From assembly GCF_053078305.1 (NCBI RefSeq), contig NZ_CP166879.1: 64,000 nt of DNA; one strand, written 5' to 3'. Both the position numbers and the translations under genes were made by a program. This document shows, in pieces, positions 1,860 to 47,518 of the stretch (position 1 is the stretch's first letter; each line of letters opens with the position of its first letter). Below the pieces are notes generated by a model. The model searched no databases. It saw only the letters and a program-made list of their open reading frames with translations, and was not told where the DNA came from.

Positions 1860-1947
1860 GGAAGTGTGGCCGAGCGGTTGAAGGCACCGGTCTTGAAAAC
1901 CGGCGACCCGAAAGGGTTCCAGAGTTCGAATCTCTGCGCTTCCGCCA
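1860..1947 (+). tRNA. serT: tRNA-Ser (anticodon UGA), intact; 3' 60 nt is the attL core
   Basis: GGAAGTGTGGCCGAGCGGTTGAAGG...CGCTTCCGCCA, long variable arm, anticodon loop cTTGAAAa. Confidence 0.9.
1888..1947 (+). repeat. attL core: 60-bp direct repeat, identical to 51881-51940
   Basis: Exact 60-nt match read directly in sequence; mismatch immediately upstream (1887 c vs 51880 t). Confidence 0.85.
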
Positions 1948-3293: not shown

Positions 3294-5012
3294 TTATAAT
3301 GGAAAATACTCAAACCCCGAAGCTCCTGACGACACATACTCACCCACGCTGACTGTACGCCACTGAGAACCATCAAATGTCACCTGAAGCGGCCTGTAAG
3401 AAACCGATATCACACCATCTGCTCCTCTACTTTTCAGACCAGTAATCACAGCTCCTATACTCAGGCTTATTGACAGAAAACCAGAGCTCTCTTCTGCTCT
3501 GTAAGTCTGTTCATTACCCAGCCTGATACCCACAACCCGGCTCTTCCCGTCTGATGCCCCGGGCGGCCCCATCGGCCCGGTTTCTCCACGCTCACCTCTG
3601 GGACCGGGGTCGCCTTTCTCCCCTTTCGGTCCCTGCGCTCCCCGCGGACCAGCGGGGCCTGTTGCTCCCGTTTCACCTTTCGGACCCTGTGCTCCGGGGT
3701 CACCTTTCTCTCCTTTCGGACCGGGAACACCACCTCCTGCTGCAGCCTCTTCTGCCTTTGTTTTCGCTTCATTTGCCACATCCATTGCCGCCTTCACGGC
3801 CTTCGGCGTGGCTGCCTTTGTTTCGTCATTACTGCCAGTATCACTGCTTAACTGCACCACACCTTTCTGCGTCGTGCTGGCATCCCGCTGGCTGACCGTA
3901 TCCGGTTTGTTTTTTGTGCTGTAATCCACCCGCCAGTGGAAATACCGTGTGTCGCCGTAAACCGTACAGGTACAGACCGTGCCATTAATAAACCCCGTTG
4001 CACCGTATTCGCCAATGGTGACCCGGACTATGGCAGCCTCATACGTTCCCATCACCTCAATGACACAGCCACCCAGATTGAGTTTTCCCGGTCCGACATC
4101 CGTGATGACTTTATTCATTGACGCAAGCAGTGATGCCTTCATCATCCAGTAAGGCTGGTCAAATGCCCCTTTTTCTTTCAGCCAGGCAACAAACTCGCGT
4201 GTTTTCCATTCACCGGCCCCCGTATGAATGTCCCGCCCGTATACTCTGGCTGCTCCCACGGTGTTCAGAAACTTCACCTTATCCGGGATATCATCACCGT
4301 TTTTCGCTTTCTCCAGGCATCCGTCCGCTTTGTCCATTGCCGCTTTCACCGCTTTCGGCGTGGCTGCCTTCGTTTCATCATCACTGTCCGTTGCGCTGCT
4401 TAACTGCACAATTCCCTTCTGTGCCGTCGTCGCATCCGGCCCTCCCGGCTCGCCTTTTTCGCCCTTCTCTCCCCGTTCACCTTTCACACCCTGAAGCCCC
4501 TGTGGTCCTGTCTCACCACGCTCACCCTTTGGCCCCCGCTCGCCGGTATCGCCTTTTGGCCCGGGAATACCCTGCGGCCCGGTGTCCCCCTTATCCCCCT
4601 TCGGTCCCCGCGCATTCTCTGCCCGTTTCTTCGCTTCCTCTGCACTCGCCGCTGACGCTTCCGCACGTTTCAGGATTTCCGCTGCCACCGCTTCCAGCTC
4701 TGCAAGGGCTTTCGGGTAATACTGTGCGTCTTCCAGGTCCATCAGAAATTTATTCAGCGTTCCCGGTGCAGAATCCGCCTTCACCAGAATGTCACCCACA
4801 TATGACGGCGCGTACCCTTCCGTGTTCAGCGTCACCCGGTACAACCCCGGCTCAACATCCATACTGTAACTGCCGGTTTCCCCCGGCTGACCATACGCCA
4901 CCGTGGTGACAATCACCATCTCCGTTGTGCGGCGCGCTTTCAGCTCTATCGTGCATCCCGGTACTGGTTTTCCCGTACCATCCTTCAGCACACCCGATAT
5001 TCTGACTGTCAT
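3294..5012 (-). CDS. stf: Side tail fiber protein with collagen-like G-x-x repeats
   Basis: Two blocks of [13 protein letters not shown]... repeats; conserved [10 protein letters not shown] motif twice; follows J. Confidence 0.75.
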
Positions 5013-5154
5013 GGATTTCCCCCATAAAAAAACCGCAGTACCGGTTTCCCGGCCTGCGGTAAAATTTGTGGTTTGTTGGTGTTAAAACGGTGCCATCCGG
5101 CTGACCACCCTCAGCAACCGGTCGGCGGGGGATATTCTCCCCCGCCACGGTTTC

Positions 5155-5295
5155 TTACTGCTTACACTGTAAGAACGCCGCAATCTCCGCGCCCGCTATC
5201 CGGAACCGGAACTCGCACAGTGAACTGTGGGTGATCCAGATAATGAGCACTACCGTGATACAAATCACGGTGGTTTTTAACGGTTTTTGCGACAT
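5155..5295 (-). CDS. hok: Hok/Gef-family type I toxin (46 aa), not in ORF track
   Basis: Own translation: MSQKPLKTTVICITVVLIIWITHSSLCEFRFRIAGAEIAAFLQCKQ; TM helix plus LCE-R-R...AAF signature; AAGGAG RBS 9 nt upstream. Confidence 0.6.
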   Translation of the reverse strand: MSQKPLKTTVICITVVLIIWITHSSLCEFRFRIAGAEIAAFLQCKQ

Positions 5296-5493
5296 AAACG
5301 CTTGCTCCTTTTACGGAGAGGCGCTAACCTTCAATTTGCTGAAGATCGAAAGTCAGGCCTCGGGTTAAACATGAATGTTTGTCCGGGGCCTTCGTCTTTC
5401 CGGCCTTCAGGTGTTCCCTCCGGCCATCAGCCAAAGGCACCCGCGCATACTGTACGGTTTTTGTCTCCTTCCGGCAATCCCGGGGCGCGATGT

Positions 5494-8400
5494 TCAACTG
5501 ATGCCGATCCCCGCCGTGGATTTTTTCATGACCACAACCAGTAAATCACTGATGTATGTTGTCGGCGTCCAGTGGTTCACCCCGTTCGACCACACATTAA
5601 ACGTCAGGGTCACATGACCCCGTCCTGCTGGCATATCAATGACGGACGAAAACACCCGGGTGACATCCGTTGCCGGCTGATGAAAAATTACCCTTCCGTT
5701 CATCTGCACCTGTAACTGACACGTGGAATACCATGTTGAAGTGTGATCTTTGCTGGACTGGTGCTCATGTCTCGCCCCCCGGAACAGCACCGGTGGAATG
5801 ATAATCTGCCGGTCGAAGCCCTGGTCATCGTAAACCGTGACGGTTATCGTGCCACTGGCATAACTGTTATTCCGGGGAAAGGCTTTCCCCACCGTCTTCA
5901 CCAGATCGCCTTCAATCTGGTTCGCAGACAGTTTCCCTCTGATGACACAGTTCTCGTTAATGGTGACATTATTGAGCGTGCCGCTATTCGCTGTGACAGC
6001 TCCACTGATGTCCGCATTGCGGGCCGTCAGCCTGCCCTCCGGCGTCAGGGAGAACGTCGGGGGATTGCCGGACGAGGTGATGCTCACTGCAAACAGTCGC
6101 TTCAGGAACACATCGTTCATGAACAGCTGATTCCCCTGCGCCACAAACAGCGGCGTGGTGTTGCCGTTCTCCGGGTTAATCATCGCGATACGGTCCGCCT
6201 GCAGCAGAATATTGCTCAGGGGCTGGCCATCAGCATCCTCAATCCCCGCACCTATACCGGCAACATACGGAATGCCGTTTTTCGTTTTCTGCACCTTCAG
6301 CATATACAGCGCAGCCAGGTCGTTATTTGTGTCTGTCTGCACCCGCTGTATCTGCTGTATGGTGGCACTCTGGTCTTCCAGGGTTTTACTGACCGTCTGC
6401 GTGATTTCATTGCGGGTTTCGGTGATGGTGGTCTTCATCTCCGCCATCTCATCGTCAAGCTGGCTGTTATCAATCAGCTCCCACATCCCCTGTGCCAGAT
6501 GTGTCTTCCCGATTTCTCCTCTGAAAAAGTCCAGATACCCTTCCGCATCATTGCTCGCCCGGCCACTGGCTTCCACAAACGCAGATTTCCCCACCAGGTT
6601 GACGCTGCGCACATAAAACCAGAAATCCTTCCCCGGCTTGATGTGCGGGCCGGAGACGCTCCACTGGCTGCCTGTCCCCAGATAACGGGCAGAGGTTTCC
6701 ACCTGAGATGTGTCTGCGATTTTTGCCTCCGAGAACCAGAACTCAAACTGTACCGTCGGGTCATACACCGCCAGCACCGGTACTGCTGTTATCTGATAAT
6801 ACCCCGGCGTCAGCTCAATGCTGGCCGGTGCTGCAGGCGCATTAATCCGGAACGCGGTGGTGGCAGGTTCGCCCTGCTGGCCGTAGCTGTTTATCGCCCT
6901 GACCGTCAGGGTGTATTCCCCCAGAGGCAGGCCACTGAAACGGTGCTCCGTGTCGGCAGTGATGGCGGTGGTCACCAGGCGGCTGTTTTCACCGTTTCCG
7001 CTGGTCAGGCGCAGACTGAAGCGCACGCCCTTCACCACCCGCGGCGTGTCCCATTTCGCCAGCGCCAGATACTGGCCGTCTGAGGCACTCACCTCCACCG
7101 TGAGGTGCTGCACTGCCGGCGGGATAACGCTGTTCAGTGAACCGGACAGCGGCTCAAAGCGAGCCCCGTTATCCACAATGGCTTCTTTTTCCGGTACGTG
7201 CTGCACTGCCGTGATGGCAAAAGTGCCGTCCGTGTTTTCCCGGATGGAAACACAGCGGAACAGGCGACGACGCAGTGACGGCAGGGAGAGTCCCCACACA
7301 CCGTATGTCTCCACGCCATCCGGCAGGGCGCTGACCTGTATCCGGTCCGGCGCGGGGTGTGCAGTGATGTCCACGCGCACCGGCTTACCGCTGCCGTTAA
7401 TCAGGTTCACCGTCGATGTCCCTGCTTCCGGCAGTGTCACCTCACGGTCCAGCGTCAGTGTGCGGCTGGCGGCATCAATGGACAGGATGCGTCCGCCGGT
7501 CAGGGTCCCGGCATAGTCGTTATCACAGATTTCAATGATGTCACCGGGCGTATGCCGCAGCCCCTGTGACCCGAGCGTGAAATCCACCGTCTGCGTTTCC
7601 AGCAGTTCGGTCTTTATCACCCACAGTCCGGCACGGTGGGCCTGACCGCGGCTGGTACAGCCAAACGCATCCATCTTCAGCAGGTTGCGTCCGTAGCGCA
7701 GGATGGCGTCCGGGTCTTCCACCAGTTCCGTGGAGGTCTGCCAGCCGTTCTGCGGGTCGGTGTAATTCACCTCCACCGCCGTGTGCCGGTCCTTCAGGGC
7801 ACTGAAGCTGTAGCGGAACCCCACGCCGTTATCATCCACCACCACATCGCTGTTGGTGTACGGCCACACCACATCCGACGGACGGTCCTGAACGAACGTC
7901 AGCGTCTGGCCGTTCCATACCGGCATACAGCGCATCGCCGAGCAGAAATCCCCCAGGACATCCCACACCTTACGCTGCTGTGACAGGTACGCATTGAAAG
8001 TCATCCGCGGCTCTGTTCCCCCGAAACCATCCGGGACCGTCTGGTCGCAGTACTGCCCGATGGCATACAGTGCCCACTTGTCCACATCCGCGGCCCCCAG
8101 GCGTTTTCCCATGCCGTAGCGCGGGTGGGTCAGCATGTCCCACAGGCACCAGGCCGGGTTATTGCTGTATGCCGGTTTCAGACTCCCGTCCCAGATACCG
8201 CTGTAGGTGCGTTTTTCCGGGTCATAGTTTGACGGCACCTGAATGATGCGACCACGGATATGGTAGTTCACCGTCAGCTGCTGGCCACCAAACTGCTCCG
8301 CATCCACCTGCAGCCCCACAATGGCCGTGTTCGGGTAGCACTGTTTCACATCGATGATTTCGGTGTATGACGACCACAGCGTTCTGTTCTGCAGCTGGTC

Positions 8401-8970
8401 CGTGGTGCTGTCCGCCGTCTCCCTGACCATCCGGATGTTAAAGGGGCGCTCAGGGAGATTATTCAGAATCACAGACGTCAGGTACTGCGAGGTGGTCTTG
8501 CCGTTAATGGTGATATCCTTCTCCGTCACCCAGTGCCCGTTACGCTCAAGCTGAATCAGCAGGCGGACAGAAGAGGGATTACGGTCACCCTTTGAGGTGG
8601 TCTCCACCAGTGACTGCACCCCGAAGGTGACCCGCAGACGGTCAATGTTCGCTGACGTGATGGTGCGCGTCACCGGCTTTGCCTTCGTCACCTCCACGCC
8701 CAGTGCGGTTTCTGCCCCGGAGGACTCAAAGCCTTCCGGCGGTGTCTGCTCCTGCTCCCCGGCGCGCCAGACGGCGGTCACACCGTGTATCACGGGATTA
8801 CCGTCCGTGTCCGTCAGCGGGGTTTTGTTCACCAGAATACTCTGCAGTCCCTTCACCGGACCTTCCACCGGTCCCTCACCAATGGCATCAATCACGCTCA
8901 TCATCTGCGTGGATTTGAGATTGTCCTTCGCCTCACGCGGTGTGTGCCCCTTGCCGCCCCCTTTACCCAC
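5494..8970 (-). CDS. J: Tail tip / host specificity protein J; likely GTG start at 8970 (track ORF extends to 9021)
   Basis: (V)[21 protein letters not shown]... collinear with lambda J throughout; AGGAGA RBS before GTG. Confidence 0.9.
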
Positions 8971-9211
8971 TCTGCCCCCCTCTCCTGTCTGATGTCTGAA
9001 TCTGTTTATGCCCAAAAACAACAGGCACCCCGGAGGGTGCCTGTGTCATGACGGAATAAAATTTCTGAAATTCTTCACATTTCCGGCAATTGCCTGTAGC
9101 CGCAATAATGACGCTGCGTTACTTTTTTGATGCCTGAAAAATAACTCCATAAAGTTAATCTTCATCGTTCTCTCCCGCAGCTCCACTAACTCTGCGGGAT
9201 TTTTTTTATTT

Positions 9212-31963: not shown

Positions 31964-31993
31964 GCCCGCATCTCACCATGCGGGCTTTTTTTA
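31964..31993 (+). terminator. Rho-independent terminator on + strand
   Basis: cccgcat-ctcacc-atgcggg hairpin followed by cttttttta. Confidence 0.5.
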
Positions 31994-32000
31994 TCCATAA

Positions 32001-32238
32001 GAAAGCCCCTCCGGAGAGGGGCTGGAGTAGCGCTATGTACCGTTCATTACATGATGCCGGGTGCCTCCCGGTGAGTTCAGCCCGGTGCCACCGAACCCGC
32101 GTCATTCTCGCTAACGATCATCAGAGACCATTCCGTACACCAGCCGCCCCTCCGCACAGGGGGATTCATCATGCAGAAATTTTTTAACAAATTCTCAGTC
32201 GGGAAGACAACCTTCAACTGACTGAATTGTGAGCAACA
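32001..32238. repeat. Structured repeat unit 1 (~238 bp), diverged copy of unit at 32489-32723
   Basis: Shared blocks: gcccctccggagaggggc hairpin, gccgggtgcctcccggtgagttcag, cccctccgcacagggggattca-ATG, ttttaacaaa, ctgaattgtgag. Confidence 0.7.
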
Positions 32239-32488
32239 TAGCATTTAACGGGGAACCTGTTTTCTGCAGTAAAAAGGCCCACCGGAGCGGACGGGCCTGG
32301 AAGGATAGCGGTCATGTGATGCCGGTTTCCCGGTAACTCAGCACCGGTATCTGAGTCAACGTTTTCTCTACTGGGTCATTTCCGATACGCCCTGCCTGCT
32401 GACAGGCTTTCATCACATCTGAAAATATAGCACCCTGACTGATACTGTAGTACCCAAGGTTCCAGAAACTGTGATGTATCCGGCACAG

Positions 32489-32723
32489 AAAAGCCCCTCC
32501 GGAGAGGGGCTGACGCTGCGTATCTGTATCATCATGCGCATGGTGCCGGGTGCCTCCCGGTGAGTTCAGTATCAGCACCTGAACCCGCACAGAAAGGATA
32601 AGGGATGTAACCAAACACCTGTCGCTGATATGCCCCTCCGCTCAGGGGGATTCACCATGCCAGTTTCTTTTAACAAACTCCCCGCAAATCAGACAACTGT
32701 CAACCGTCTGAATTGTGAGACAT
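32489..32723. repeat. Structured repeat unit 2 (~235 bp)
   Basis: Same block order as unit 1; hairpins preserved by compensatory changes (ccgcaca vs ccgctca loop). Confidence 0.7.
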
Positions 32724-32789: not shown

Positions 32790-33725
32790 TTAACGTATGT
32801 GCACACAACCTGAACCGGCATCAAAAAACAAACCGTGCACTGACAGAAAACGGGAAACCTCCGTCCGCTGATCATCACTCATTAAGGACCACACAAAGGC
32901 GTTATGCTCATCTTCAAGTTTCCGTCTTCTTGTTTGCCTTACAAGCAACTCAGCCGTCACCTGTACAATGTCAATGACCACCTTCTCTTCAGCAATGTAC
33001 GGCCTGTTCCAGTTCTCTGTGTTAATCTTCTCCGTCACCGGCGCTGACTTTTTGCAAGTTTCCCCATTAAACCCGACGCCATAAACAACAACATCATCGC
33101 TTTGCTTTTCGTTATCAATAATGACGAATAATACAGAAACCGATGTATCAGCGAACCCGCCTGAAATCTGAACCAACTCAACAACGCGGTTGCCAAAATA
33201 CTGACGCATTGCCAGCTCACCACGCCTGTAACCAACCCCGGGAAAGCACAAAAAAAATGAAAATCTTGCCTTCATACTCGCCAGAACATAAAACGCGTCA
33301 TCCAGAACACCGGAGGTCTTTTTATAAGGCATCATCGCTGAAATCTTCTCCCTGATATCCGCGCTCTGTGCTTTGTACTGTAGCGAAAAAGGCGGATTCA
33401 TGATGACACAATCGAACGTGTCCGTGTCACTGACATCATCTATGGCGTTGAAGAAATTTTCATTGACCGTCTTCACTGTGGCATCCGGAAAGTTATCCGG
33501 GATATGCAACAACGGAGAGGCCTGTATATCCACAGCATACAGACTTCCCACCGTGAGAAACTGCTCCAGTTGCCCGGAGCCACACGCACCATCAAAAATA
33601 CTCAGGGGCAGATCACCACAATATTCCCGCACTTTTTCAGCGACAAACCGACGCAAAGGAACGGACGTGATGTACTCTGCGTATTTTCTGGCGACTTCGC
33701 GATTATTGGATTCCTGAAAAACCAT
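32790..33725 (-). CDS. Putative N6-adenine DNA methyltransferase, gamma-class-like (motif I before NPPF)
   Basis: IFDGACGSGQL (SAM-binding) then VIMNPPF; 311 aa, too small for a separate target-recognition domain; lies at stx-equivalent locus. Confidence 0.6.
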   Translation of the reverse strand: MVFQESNNREVARKYAEYITSVPLRRFVAEKVREYCGDLPLSIFDGACGSGQLEQFLTVGSLYAVDIQASPLLHIPDNFPDATVKTVNENFFNAIDDVSDTDTFDCVIMNPPFSLQYKAQSADIREKISAMMPYKKTSGVLDDAFYVLASMKARFSFFLCFPGVGYRRGELAMRQYFGNRVVELVQISGGFADTSVSVLFVIIDNEKQSDDVVVYGVGFNGETCKKSAPVTEKINTENWNRPYIAEEKVVIDIVQVTAELLVRQTRRRKLEDEHNAFVWSLMSDDQRTEVSRFLSVHGLFFDAGSGCVHIR

Positions 33726-33810: not shown

Positions 33811-33887
33811 TGGCGCGTTGTACTGGATTCGAACCAGTGACCGATTGCTTAGAAGGCAATTGCTCTGTCCGACTGAGCTAACAACGC
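33811..33887 (-). tRNA. argO: tRNA-Arg (anticodon UCU), argO-like
   Basis: Cloverleaf folded by hand: acceptor GCGTTGT/ACAACGC, anticodon loop CTTCTAA, T-loop GGTTCGAATCC, CCA end. Confidence 0.75.
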
Positions 33888-33900
33888 ATGATGCTGATAA

Positions 33901-33977
33901 TGGACCGCCATCGGGGACTTGAACCCCGCGCAGCCAGCTTCGAAGGCTGGCGCTCTGTCCCGATGAGCTAATGGCGG
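33901..33977 (-). tRNA. argN: tRNA-Arg (anticodon UCG as read), argN-like
   Basis: Acceptor CCGCCAT/ATGGCGG, anticodon loop CTTCGAA, T-arm CGGGGTTCAAGTCCCCG. Confidence 0.65.
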
Positions 33978-33986
33978 TATGTGATA

Positions 33987-34062
33987 TGGTGGCCCTTGCT
34001 GGATTTGAACCAGCGACCTGGCGATTATGAGTCGCTCGCTCTCACCACTGAGCTAAAGGGCC
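33987..34062 (-). tRNA. ileZ: tRNA with CAU anticodon, ileX-like (tRNA-Ile2 via lysidine, or Met)
   Basis: GGCCCTTTAGCTCAGTGGTGAGAGC...CTCATAA...GGTTCAAATCC...CCA; close to E. coli ileX. Confidence 0.75.
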
Positions 34063-34102: not shown

Positions 34103-35161
34103 TCATCCGTTCTGACTGGCTAAATCCTGAACTTCCCTGACCGTCTGCTCAAAACGTTCAGTCTCCAGCTCAACGCCAGTTGCACGACGCCCCAGCGCCA
34201 TCGCGGCTTTGACTGTCGAACCCGACCCCATGAAAAAATCTGCAACCAGGTCCCCCGGACGACTGCTCGCGCTGATTATCTGCTGCAGCATTTCTGCCGG
34301 TTTTTCGCACGGATGTTTCCCGGGATAGTACTGCACCGGTTTATGCGTCCACACATCCGTGTACGGCACCTGCGCCGTCACACCGAAATACCGCCGCAGA
34401 TGCTTATATTCACTCTGCAGTTCCGCATACTGCCGGTTCAGTGAAGTATATGTCTCCAGCAGCTGGTGGTGGGGCTTTTCCAGTTCACCCCGCTGATGCT
34501 TCTCTTCTGCCACCCGGGCAAACAGCGCCTGTAATTTCAGATAATCACTTTCGTTCGGCAGCTGCCACTGACTGGCACTGAACCAGTGCGACACCATGTT
34601 TTTCTTTCCTGTGGCATCCACTATCTGTTTTGCCGTTATCCCCAGGGCAGCGCGCGCATCACGAAAGTAAGCAATCAGCGGGGCCATCACATGCTGTTTC
34701 AGTGCCCTGCCCTTCGCCTCATACCCGGCATCTTTCGGACGATACGGCCCCTGATAATGTTCCGCGAACAGAATGCGCTCTGTGGCGGGGAAATACGCCC
34801 GCAGGCTTTCCTTGTTGCACCCGTTCCAGCGTCCGGACGGCTTTGCCCAGATGATATGGTTCAGCACACTGAAGCGTTCACGCATCATGATTTCAATGTC
34901 AGACGCCAGGCGATGACCACAGAACAGGTAAAGACTTCCGGCAGGTTTCAGCACCCGCCAGAACTGCGCCAGACACTGGTCCAGCCACTTCAGGTAATCA
35001 TCGTCGCCCTTCCACTGGTTATCCCAGCCCTCGGGCTTCACTTTAAAGTATGGCGGGTCTGTGACTATCAGATCGACAGAGTTTTCCGGTAAGGTCTGGA
35101 TAAATTCCAGGCAATCAGCGTTGATTAACTCACAACTGGATATTTTTACAGTATTAAGCAT
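34103..35161 (-). CDS. DNA methyltransferase, beta-class (DPPY ... FxGxG), 352 aa
   Basis: DLIVTDPPYF near N-terminus; DFFMGSGSTV near C-terminus. Confidence 0.75.
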   Translation of the reverse strand: MLNTVKISSCELINADCLEFIQTLPENSVDLIVTDPPYFKVKPEGWDNQWKGDDDYLKWLDQCLAQFWRVLKPAGSLYLFCGHRLASDIEIMMRERFSVLNHIIWAKPSGRWNGCNKESLRAYFPATERILFAEHYQGPYRPKDAGYEAKGRALKQHVMAPLIAYFRDARAALGITAKQIVDATGKKNMVSHWFSASQWQLPNESDYLKLQALFARVAEEKHQRGELEKPHHQLLETYTSLNRQYAELQSEYKHLRRYFGVTAQVPYTDVWTHKPVQYYPGKHPCEKPAEMLQQIISASSRPGDLVADFFMGSGSTVKAAMALGRRATGVELETERFEQTVREVQDLASQNG

Positions 35162-38224: not shown

Positions 38225-38569
38225 TTACTTTAATAATTTCAGTGCCTTTACATCAACTTCAACACTGCTCAGGTCTTTATCAATTTCACCCTCAATTCTT
38301 ACTTTGTCTTTCGGAGAAACATTCTGCCCGGCCCATACGCTGTCATCAATATCCGTGACAATTGTCCCGCTATTGTCACGAAACTCATAACGTTCATCAC
38401 CCACTTTTTTAATGATGCTCCCTTCAAGGATAACCCATGCATCATCCTTCAGTTCTTTTGCCTGCGCTACTGTTGAACGCTCTGCTTCAGGCCCCTGGAA
38501 ACCACCCTGCTGTGCAAAAACGCCAAAAGACACACCGGAAATAAGTGCTGCAATCAATACCTTTTTCAT
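38225..38569 (-). CDS. Periplasmic OB-fold protein, YgiW/YdeI (BOF) family; moron
   Basis: Signal peptide MKKVLIAALISGVSFGVFA; QGGFQGP...AKELKDDAWVILEGSIIKKVGDERYEFRDNSGTI... resembles YdeI/YgiW. Confidence 0.7.
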   Translation of the reverse strand: MKKVLIAALISGVSFGVFAQQGGFQGPEAERSTVAQAKELKDDAWVILEGSIIKKVGDERYEFRDNSGTIVTDIDDSVWAGQNVSPKDKVRIEGEIDKDLSSVEVDVKALKLLK

Positions 38570-38690: not shown

Positions 38691-38846
38691 TTACTTCTCA
38701 GATTCGTAGTCTACGAAGACAGCAACCTCCGTCTGGCCGGTTCGGATTCGTACCTCGCAGAGGTCTTTCCTCGTTACCAGTGCCGTCACAACAACGGTAA
38801 TACAGATGACGATCAGGGCGATTAACATCGCCTTTTGCTGCTTCAT
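38691..38846 (-). CDS. hok: Hok-family type I toxin (51 aa)
   Basis: MKQQKAMLIALIVICITVVVTALVTRKDLCEVRIRTGQTEVAVFVDYESEK; track ORF extends upstream (mok-like reading frame). Confidence 0.8.
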   Translation of the reverse strand: MKQQKAMLIALIVICITVVVTALVTRKDLCEVRIRTGQTEVAVFVDYESEK

Positions 38847-39136
38847 AGCCTGCTTCTCCTTGCCTTTCGGCACGTAAGAGGCTAACCTACGTTTGTGAAG
38901 CATAGATTGGGCCTCAGATTAATGTTAAGCGTCCTGCAAGACGCGTAATGTTAACTGGGGCTTTTCTCTGTCTGCCTTACGGCGGCATGCCCGAGGCAGA
39001 CAGCCTCAAGCACCCGCAGCAATTCTACTTAACTCTTCTTTCCCCGCAAACCGTTTTTATCCCCAGCGGCAAATCGAATACACCACCAGCGCCACCGCCA
39101 TTGCAATACCAACATTTGAGAAGGCCTCAGGCCAGC

Positions 39137-46475: not shown

Positions 46476-46933
46476 AAAGTGAATTTTGTGATGCGGTGAA
46501 TGCGGCTAAGCGCACGCGGAACAGTTAAAACCGTAAAGTGGTCTTTTACGGGGCGTAACGGGCATACTTCTGTATTCCGGCGTTAATTGTTAACTGGTTA
46601 ACGTCACCTGGAGGCACCAGGCACTGCATCGACAAAGTTCACTTCGGTGATGAAAGGTAAGAGAAAATGTTGAATGTAGCTATTGAAAACCAGAACGGGT
46701 GGAATTATAGTGCACCTGCACCTCATAAAGCGGGTGCCGGGATTGCTACCCCGATGTTCATCATGGCGCATAACCGCGCTCAGGCGTTTTTTTTATGCGT
46801 AATGCACAGCCACATTCAGATTATGGTGGGGCGTGCAGGGCAGCCGCAAGGCTGGCCGGGTTCCATGATGACCGGTTGTAGCAACCCTGTGCGTCTCACC
46901 ACCCATGAGATTGCTACCTCCGGTGGTGAGTTA

Positions 46934-47518
46934 ATGAAATTCATCATGGAGGCTGCCATCATGGCTACTATCCCTGCCCTTTCTCACCCTGAAATTACTA
47001 TCGCCAATGGGCGTGCTGTTACATCCTCTTTAGCTGTTGCCGAGTATTTCCGGAAACCACACAAAGATGTACTGGCAAAAATTTCACGTCTAGACTGTTC
47101 AGCAGAATTCACTGAGCGAAATTTTTCGCCCAGTGAATATACCGACTCAACCGGGCGCAAACTCCCTATGTACCAAATCACCAAAAACGGCTTCGTTTTC
47201 CTGGTGATGGGCTTCACCGGCAAAAAAGCCGCTGCATTTAAAGAAGCCTACATCGCTGAGTTCGATCGCATGGAGAAAGAACTGCGCCAGAATAACGCCC
47301 CGTCTCCCGACAAAATGATTCACGGGGACGGACGTACCCTGGTTATCCGTCTCGACGAACACGGCAATATCAAATTCACTGAAACCGTTCCTGATGGTGC
47401 AATGGTCTGCACCCTGGATACCTTCCAGTTTTATCTGGAGAAACAAGGCTGGACTCTTGTAAACCGGAGCGCAATTAAAAATATGACTGTGGAGCAATTA
47501 CTAAAAATTCATTGTTGA
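46934..47518 (+). CDS. rha: Rha-family phage regulatory protein (start uncertain: 46934 or 46961)
   Basis: ...ITIANGRAVTSSLAVAEYFRKPHKDVLAKISRL...PMYQITKNGFVFLVMGFTGKKAAAFKEAYI... Rha domain. Confidence 0.65.
   Translation: MKFIMEAAIMATIPALSHPEITIANGRAVTSSLAVAEYFRKPHKDVLAKISRLDCSAEFTERNFSPSEYTDSTGRKLPMYQITKNGFVFLVMGFTGKKAAAFKEAYIAEFDRMEKELRQNNAPSPDKMIHGDGRTLVIRLDEHGNIKFTETVPDGAMVCTLDTFQFYLEKQGWTLVNRSAIKNMTVEQLLKIHC

Follow-up and report, generated by a model that had tools for sequence, protein, structure and literature searches.

What occupies the short gap between the gene for the central tail fibre J and the gene for a side tail-fibre protein in the prophage carried on contig NZ_CP166879.1 of NCBI RefSeq assembly GCF_053078305.1? 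Here we address this question for a stretch of 64,000 nucleotides (nt) of that contig, given as one strand and referred to below as the window, in which an earlier note had picked out a 46-codon open reading frame (ORF) between these two genes as an unannotated Hok-family toxin gene. To judge from the sequence and its relatives, the gap in this lambdoid prophage probably harbours a moron in the form of a hok/sok-type type I toxin-antitoxin cassette that is complete and self-contained, and we place the probability of this reading at about 85%.

The toxin gene and its conservation

The hok coding sequence lies on the minus strand (5295..5155) and comprises 46 codons followed by TAA. It encodes the peptide MSQKPLKTTVICITVVLIIWITHSSLCEFRFRIAGAEIAAFLQCKQ, in which an N-terminal hydrophobic stretch, TVICITVVLIIWIT, can be recognized by eye. 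A Shine-Dalgarno sequence, AAGGAG, is located at 5310..5305 (−), 9 nt ahead of the hok ATG; the translation is exactly the one given in the earlier note, and its AAGGAG ribosome-binding site (RBS) is in place. The assignment to the Hok family, for which an alignment to the family profile had been proposed as a check, was borne out. Pfam PF01848 HOK_GEF matched residues 10-44 of the 46-amino-acid (aa) peptide (E 2.5e-11, 43.4 bits), PHROG 251 ('MokW-like host killing', moron category) matched residues 1-46 (E 1.8e-21), and the NCBIfam HokA and Hok-family models gave E values of about 1e-9. Upon alignment with R1 Hok, HokB to HokE, PndA and HokW, the Hok-logo residues C16, T18, L30, C31, E32 and E41 are present as C12, T14, L26, C27, E28 and E37. 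In a published set of 1,264 Hok peptides, these logo residues are kept in more than 80% of sequences (bioRxiv 10.1101/2025.08.07.668861).

For comparison we used 15 homologous loci, the window copy included. The length of the hok ORF varies only between 45 and 47 aa among them, and dN/dS (the ratio of non-synonymous to synonymous substitution rates) of the frame between clades is 0.27-0.60. The frame differs from that of Escherichia coli PG20180057 by 4 synonymous and 0 non-synonymous changes, and the identical 46-aa peptide is encoded by loci that differ by 6-9% at the DNA level. The toxin frame is thus under purifying selection, and the low dN/dS, the exclusively synonymous changes compared to PG20180057 and the constant ORF length argue against plain decay.

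Predicted structure of the hok mRNA

A candidate hok promoter is located at 5449..5477 (−), with the −35 hexamer TTGCCG (5477-5472), a 17-nt spacer and the −10 hexamer TACAGT (5454-5449), and begins 16 nt past the J stop codon. Both hexamers are kept in 9 aligned loci from 5 genomic contexts, where the −35 reads TTGCCG, TTGCCC, TTGCGG or TTGAAA and the −10 TACAGT, TAAATT, TAGATT, TACATT or TAGAAT. From the predicted +1, a G at 5442 that coincides with position 1 of the Rfam model RF01794, to the end of the terminator, the full-length hok mRNA would span about 415 nt (5026..5442, −). The leader matches RF01794 at 5442..5284 (−) with 63.5 bits (gathering score 59) over positions 1-157 of the model. 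The approximately 200 nt upstream of the ORF carry a hok leader that includes a Sok-like antisense gene, as the earlier note had anticipated.

RF01794 is named 'sok antitoxin', yet both of its matches in the window (5284-5442 and 38841-39015) lie on the same strand as hok and extend from position +1 of the mRNA as far as the hok start codon. The model thus represents, in effect, the leader of the hok mRNA and not the antisense RNA, and a strand read off an RF01794 match would misplace Sok.

The elements of the putative mRNA follow one another in 5' to 3' direction. A tac-like 5' end, GGGUGCCUUUGGCUGAUGG (5424..5442, −), is nearly invariant in the 15 loci and pairs with 5104-5089 in both the consensus and the single-sequence fold. 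Within the target of the Sok 5' tail is a ucb-like box, CUUCAGC (5338..5344, −), which in the full-length RNA is paired with 5115-5108 (helix 7); its partner in the consensus fold is the dcb-like box GCUGAGGG (5108..5115, −). A hairpin at 5295..5326 (−) hides the hok Shine-Dalgarno sequence and the start codon, and its two helices (helices 8 and 9) are 100% and 95% paired across the 15 loci. Past the hok stop codon we identified a G+C-rich hairpin, GGCGGGGGA-GAAUA-UCCCCCGCC (5124..5146, −), formed by helix 17 with 9 pairs, of which 100% are paired and 4 show compensatory changes. The fbi-like element UCAGCC-GGAU-GGCACC (5089..5104, −) is the pairing partner of the mRNA 5' end; GGCACC is nearly invariant among the loci, and where the upstream arm varies, a C has mostly become a U, so that G-U pairs are retained. 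The transcript would end in an intrinsic terminator, ACCGCAG...CUGCGG followed by U7 (5026..5060, −), which forms a hairpin in the fold and ends 13 nt before the tail-fibre ATG at 5012. A consensus scan for promoters and terminators missed this terminator because its stem is interrupted, and made a single call within the cassette, the post-stop hairpin at 5124..5146, on the plus strand.

The folding of the leader for tac and fbi, proposed earlier as a check, gave a closure between the 5' and 3' ends in both single-sequence and consensus folds. The minimum free energy predicted by RNAfold for the 415-nt RNA (5442-5028) is −189.1 kcal/mol, with a z score of −8.8 against shuffled sequences, and nt 2-17 are paired to the fbi region. 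From the alignment of the 15 loci, in which mean column identity is 80%, RNAalifold arrived independently at the 5'-3' closure, the helix between CUUCAGC and GCUGAGGG, the Shine-Dalgarno hairpin and the 3' hairpin. In this consensus fold 96.7% of pair cells are paired, compared to 39-45% when the partners are slid along the alignment; the structure was derived from the alignment on which it was scored, which favours it, and the gap to the slid controls is still large. Compensatory changes occur at 13 pairs, a number reached by only 1 of 500 shuffles, with 4 covarying pairs in the 3' hairpin and 2 in the ucb/dcb-like helix. The tac/fbi helix (helix 1) has 95% of its cells paired.

We also removed the 3' end, including fbi, in silico. 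This rendered the 12 nt that face the Sok 5' tail more accessible in 15 of 15 loci, and in the window copy the predicted unpaired probability rose from 0.13 to 0.57. Such a gain in accessibility of the Sok target upon 3' shortening, as predicted by the folding model, fits the logic of the R1 system.

A predicted Sok-like antisense RNA

On the opposite strand, a putative Sok promoter is located at 5302..5330 (+), with the −35 hexamer TTGCTC (5302-5307) overlapping the hok Shine-Dalgarno sequence, a 17-nt spacer and the −10 hexamer TAACCT (5325-5330). Across 15 of 15 loci, neither the TTG of the −35 nor any position of TAACCT varies, and the distance between the two hexamers is maintained. We take the R1 Sok promoter to be TTGCGC-17-TATCCT, in the same relative place. 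For the antisense promoter, a search for which was suggested in the earlier note, the hexamers are conserved by position; the consensus scan made no call here.

The predicted Sok-like RNA of about 65 nt (5337..5401, +) consists of an 18-nt single-stranded 5' tail, a hairpin at 5355-5391 and the tail UCGUCUUUCC, and is complementary to approximately +42..+106 of the hok mRNA. Its fold has a free energy of −25.7 kcal/mol (z −3.5). An antisense RNA of the same shape, 63-66 nt in length, is encoded at 15 of 15 homologous loci. Two variants of the inner stem, UUAAACAU/AUGUUU and GGUUAAC/GUUGACU, both pair. These RNAs were folded one by one, as the RNAalifold consensus for the antisense strand was poor with the two hairpin variants out of register.

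The genomic slot

The upstream gene on the minus strand (5494..9021, stop at 5494) encodes the central tail fibre J (PHROG 31, E 0), and the downstream gene (3294..5012, −; ATG at 5012) encodes a side tail-fibre protein (PHROG 366, E 2e-118). In the 481-nt gap between them, nothing else of note was found on either strand. The earlier note had called this gap the lom position, and phages PhiR5_1 and P-EibA, of which the 5' ends of the tail-fibre genes are about 90% identical to that of the window, indeed carry lom between J and the tail-fibre gene. The last approximately 30 nt ahead of the tail-fibre ATG, comprising the 3' half of the terminator stem, the T-run and the RBS, are common to the lom-bearing PhiR5_1 and P-EibA and to hok-bearing phages. 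By sequence comparison, the gap between J and the tail-fibre gene is thus a moron slot with a fixed downstream junction, in which the hok cassette stands where relatives have lom. The features by which a moron is recognized are present, namely own promoter hexamers, with activity inferred, an own terminator, and a slot that is filled by lom in related phages.

Relatives of the cassette occur in other contexts. Shiga toxin (Stx) phages have one behind lom and P2-like prophages have one behind ogr, O157 chromosomes carry one adjacent to the L31B gene, and others are located on an IncI plasmid, in Escherichia albertii and in a Citrobacter metagenome-assembled genome (MAG). Homology to the cassettes elsewhere spans from the −35 hexamer to fbi and then ends. 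These common boundaries across contexts mark the cassette as a mobile unit.

The cassette has the same orientation as J and the tail-fibre gene, and there is no terminator-like sequence from the J stop codon to the hok promoter, so that late read-through into the cassette is possible. Moreover, the tail-fibre gene lies beyond the cassette terminator; late, Q-modified transcription would therefore have to traverse the cassette in order to reach it, meeting the Sok promoter head-on. The earlier suggestion of co-transcription with the tail genes can be retained to the extent that read-through from J may occur, but the conserved promoter hexamers and the terminator of its own characterize the cassette as an independent unit.

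The leader frame and evidence against a functional cassette

The canonical mok-like element that the earlier note had expected upstream of hok is absent from the window copy. Its truncated counterpart is a short leader ORF at 5331..5372 (−), which starts with an ATG at 5372, comprises 13 codons, ends with TGA at 5333-5331 and has no Shine-Dalgarno sequence. In strain RM10466 the same ATG starts a 69-codon frame that overlaps hok, and in the window the substitution of AGA AGA by AAT TGA generates the stop codon. An overlapping mok frame is present in 5 of the 15 loci and missing in 10, including the window and the widespread Stx-phage version. A second AUG, at +45 and accompanied by a GAAGG Shine-Dalgarno sequence, is common among the 15 loci and heads ORFs of between 1 and 79 codons; it is lost in the window. 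PG20180057 shares with the window a patch, AAAGACG for ATGTGAA, which removes the +45 AUG and renders the 3' tail of Sok more U-rich. The hok start codon of PG20180057 is GTG and not ATG, the peptide being otherwise the same.

We treated mok as a feature of the R1 mechanism and not as a criterion of family membership. It is likewise no criterion in the published catalogue of Hok homologues (bioRxiv 10.1101/2025.08.07.668861). The hok RBS is always placed in a hairpin, though 10 of the 15 loci have no leader frame that reaches hok. Two readings of this remain: either the subfamily is independent of mok, or many copies, that of the window included, are translationally crippled. A conserved mok is lacking from the 46-aa subfamily.

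Several observations weigh against a complete and functional cassette. The window copy has no leader frame overlapping hok, the 13-codon ORF ending 35 nt upstream of the hok ATG. The Shine-Dalgarno sequence has a predicted unpaired probability of at most 0.02 in the full-length and at most 0.22 in the 3'-shortened RNA in all 15 loci; according to these models the RBS would stay closed even after 3' shortening, which leaves the activation of translation unexplained. Among the 15 loci, no double compensatory change was found in the otherwise conserved tac/fbi closure. The hok and Sok promoters match only 8 and 6 of 12 consensus positions, respectively, and neither was called by the consensus scan; we infer their activity from comparison among loci and not from consensus score. 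The invariant −10 hexamer of Sok could equally reflect constraints acting on the sense-strand RNA. The NCBIfam matches of the toxin do not reach the curated cut-offs (HokA equivalog NF007290, 38.2 bits compared to 89; Hok family NF007279, 37.2 compared to 73), and because of these scores we classify the 46-aa peptide by its sequence as a family-level Hok relative, neither a HokA equivalog nor a member of the curated NF007279 subfamily. Finally, the experiments available for a prophage-borne system, hokW, concern a different, 51-aa locus and are not directly transferable to the 46-aa locus.

Proposed mechanism and alternative explanations

According to the R1 paradigm from Gerdes-lab work, full-length hok mRNA responds neither to ribosomes nor to Sok, and trimming renders the RNA sensitive to Sok; an RBS that stays closed after trimming is what makes mok necessary. 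By analogy, the full-length hok mRNA of the window would be inert, with tac closed onto fbi. Slow trimming would strip fbi from the 3' end, upon which the RNA would refold and expose the target of the Sok 5' tail. As long as the prophage is present and transcribed, short-lived Sok would bind the refolded RNA, leading to its destruction, which in the R1 paradigm involves cleavage of the Sok-mRNA duplex by RNase III. Once Sok synthesis ends, the pool of stable mRNA would be translated and Hok would depolarise the inner membrane. Sok synthesis could stop if the element is lost, if an infecting phage shuts off transcription, or, after induction, as a result of convergent transcription of the late operon. 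In a copy without an overlapping mok, control would operate through Sok-triggered mRNA decay combined with inefficient direct initiation at hok, instead of coupling between mok and hok. The pay-off to the phage is likely to be addiction or abortive infection, and possibly help in lysis, as reported for hokW.

The same parts might alternatively serve as a phage-timed lysis helper. Q-antiterminated read-through from J would flood the cell with hok RNA and hit the Sok promoter, and Hok made late would aid holin-dependent lysis and phage release. This would agree with the co-orientation of the cassette with J and the tail-fibre gene, with the lack of a terminator between J and the cassette, and with the passage that late transcription must make through it. 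It would also agree with observations on hokW of prophage Sp5, for which sokW RNA vanished after mitomycin C treatment, HokW production was RecA-dependent and deletion halved the phage yield (PMC8621323). These data come from another subfamily, however, and relatives 72-77% identical to the window cassette also occur where there is no late operon, namely behind ogr in P2-like prophages, on plasmids and in the chromosome, so that the cassette is not tailored to this slot. Because very similar cassettes sit outside any late operon, lysis help cannot be the general role, and we regard it as a tentative and rather unlikely explanation even for the window copy. Doubtful to a greater degree is a reading in which the 46-aa subfamily (clusters 72 and 79) would be controlled without mok and, in the tail-operon slot of the window, the switch would be transcriptional, through Q-antiterminated J read-through and collision at the Sok promoter, the cassette being a late-phase lysis helper and not an addiction module.

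Another possibility is that the window copy is a regulatory remnant, with an intact toxin ORF that cannot be translated from its own transcript, like several hok loci in the chromosome of E. coli K-12 that have become inactive. The nonsense substitution that trims the mok frame to 13 codons points in this direction, as do the loss of the +45 AUG found in most relatives, the predicted pairing of Shine-Dalgarno sequence and start codon in both the full-length and the shortened RNA, and a 1-nt insertion that stretches the spacing between Shine-Dalgarno sequence and ATG in the window to 9 nt. Yet every RNA element is intact, the same peptide is maintained despite a DNA difference of 6-9%, with only synonymous changes relative to PG20180057, and 10 of the 15 loci are equally devoid of an overlapping mok, which may therefore be dispensable in this subfamily. 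Taken together, we consider a remnant improbable. That the 46 codons, a length under the usual ORF cut-offs, are a chance ORF in an intergenic spacer and no gene at all can be dismissed in view of matches in 3 independent profile libraries, the Rfam match of the leader, conserved length and purifying selection, and annotation in RefSeq.

Comparison with characterized hok/sok loci

A hok/sok-type cassette, the reading we prefer, is collinear with the R1 hok/sok (parB) locus. Both have the order of promoter, tac, Sok target, Sok gene with a promoter abutting the hok RBS, and sequestered RBS, followed by a small membrane toxin with the C..T...LCE...E signature, a 3' hairpin, fbi and a terminator. 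The R1 hok mRNA, which we take to be 398 nt, is similar in length to the approximately 415 nt of the window. By contrast, the window toxin is only about 30% identical to R1 Hok overall and 39% over a local alignment of 33 residues, with 46 compared to 52 aa, and DNA identity is about 46% over aligned positions. The window locus also differs in having no hok-overlapping mok and in its location in the tail-gene region of a prophage and not on a plasmid. As an aside, in the IncFII plasmid pMTY1886 an R1-type Hok gene is listed with 33 codons (558-659), although the match to the complete 52-aa Hok spans 501-656; the start annotated for this hok appears to be too far downstream.

Closer relatives encode 46-aa Hok proteins after lom in Stx phages (933W L0129; Shigella phage 75/02 gp62, 'MokW-like'; cluster 72) and after ogr in P2-like prophages, with 72-77% DNA identity from the −35 hexamer to fbi. 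They share with the window the leader, the Sok-like hairpin and the toxin length of 46 aa. Their toxins are 61-65% identical to that of the window, they occupy other slots, and they possess a leader ORF from +45 (MWKGPEST...), of which the AUG is lost in the window. The Stx-phage relative (76-77% identical) is not to be equated with hokW of Takada et al. 2021; the primers of that study encode a different, 51-aa protein, MKQQKAM... (PMC8621323).

Takada et al. 2021 (PMC8621323) demonstrated experimentally that hokW-sokW of Sakai prophage 5 acts as toxin and antitoxin and plays a part in phage release. Like the window cassette, this locus is a prophage-borne hok/sok system, and a near-identical hokW-type locus is present in the window at 38691-39015. 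It differs from the window cassette in its 51-aa HokC/D-like toxin, which is 39% identical to the 46-aa peptide, in its in-frame 70-codon mok and in its leader. The second locus (38691-39015, −) matches RF01794 with 117.7 bits at 38841-39015, and a 70-codon mok (38903-38691) contains the in-frame 51-aa Hok MKQQKAMLIALIVICITVVVTALVTRKDLCEVRIRTGQTEVAVFVDYESEK. This protein is 2 residues from catalogue entry 35_712, the C-terminal sequence of which equals that encoded by primer YO-560 of the hokW study. Just downstream is a gene for a YgiW/YdeI-type OB-fold stress protein (38225-38569). The prophage of the window thus carries two different hok/sok loci; two copies are found in only 3.5% of Hok-bearing phages (bioRxiv 10.1101/2025.08.07.668861).

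Prior annotation and distribution

The description of the toxin gene as unannotated holds only for the ORF track available to the earlier reader. The 46-aa peptide has exactly the sequence of RefSeq WP_000078852.1, 'Hok/Gef family protein', and PHROG 251 and a published cluster exist. We found no substantive difference between the window hok and WP_000078852.1/WP_000078853.1, cluster 79 and PHROG 251. In E. coli STEC434, the gene for WP_000078852.1 has gpJ on one side and the gene for a 'prophage tail fiber N-terminal domain-containing protein' on the other, and the DNA of the cassette is 100% identical to that of the window. The order of gpJ, hok and tail fibre is also annotated in PG20180057, 2012EL-2448 and RM10466, and STEC434, PG20180057 and 2012EL-2448 encode the identical peptide in this arrangement. 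In phage 1720a-02, the hok gene in the corresponding arrangement is labelled hypothetical. The locus is therefore a known, annotated and catalogued kind of element, and the gene, its family, its prophage enrichment and its position are all public already. More generally, small-ORF cut-offs conceal real toxin genes in phage late operons.

Among 5,426 complete E. coli genomes, 118 hold at least 80% of a query comprising the J end, the cassette and the start of the tail-fibre gene, and approximately 1,750 hold cassette relatives at 72-77% DNA identity. The prophage of the window as a whole is a mosaic, its first 25 kb being covered to at most 87% by any genome in the collection.

Escalera-Maurer et al. 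catalogued 44,248 Hok homologues and reported their enrichment in prophages (bioRxiv 10.1101/2025.08.07.668861, 2026 preprint). Their Table S2 lists construct 79_1563 of cluster 79, which corresponds to the 46-aa peptide with Q46R, a change of the last residue only. According to the text of the preprint, 42 of 45 Hok constructs were toxic, and the non-toxic constructs named there are 19_179, 60_1482 and 69_1540. By exclusion from that text, construct 79_1563, one residue away from the window toxin, would be among the toxic ones.

Other features of the window

A wider pattern scan with GGGTGCCTTT-N95-115-GGTTAGCGCCTC, using one genome per species, retrieved 5 loci only and added little diversity. 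A candidate in a Verrucomicrobia MAG was rejected as a chance match devoid of homology. Two further candidates, on a 3.4-kb contig of a Collinsella MAG and on an 857-bp contig of Xanthomonas pisi DSM 18956, belong to the Stx-phage and P2 types of enterobacterial hok cassette and are cut by the contig ends; contamination or mis-binning is the most likely explanation for both.

Elsewhere in the window, a phage tRNA cluster (Arg-tct, Arg-tcg, Met) is located at 33811-34062 (−), as in Stx phages. Shiga toxin genes were sought beside these tRNAs, and none was found. Downstream of the cluster, where Stx phages carry stx, there are two tandem copies of the small RNA STnc100, at 31993-32203 and 32483-32689 (−), scoring 164 and 135 bits. 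ORFs by the tRNA cluster at 32790-33725 and 34103-35161 (−) gave weak or partial matches to DNA methyltransferases (hsdM-like, E 5e-6; adenine methyltransferase, E 5e-33, below the cut-off). IsrK (58 bits) and C4 antisense RNA (78 bits) were identified side by side at 46718-46906 (+), upstream of an ORF at 46667-47518, in a region that presumably resembles the P1/P7-type antirepressor control region of some lambdoid prophages. Finally, a tRNA-Ser (tga) gene at 1860-1947 (+) adjoins the tail-fibre end of the prophage. This tRNA gene is probably the attachment site, because the matching prophage of STEC434 ends by a tRNA-Ser near hyaA.

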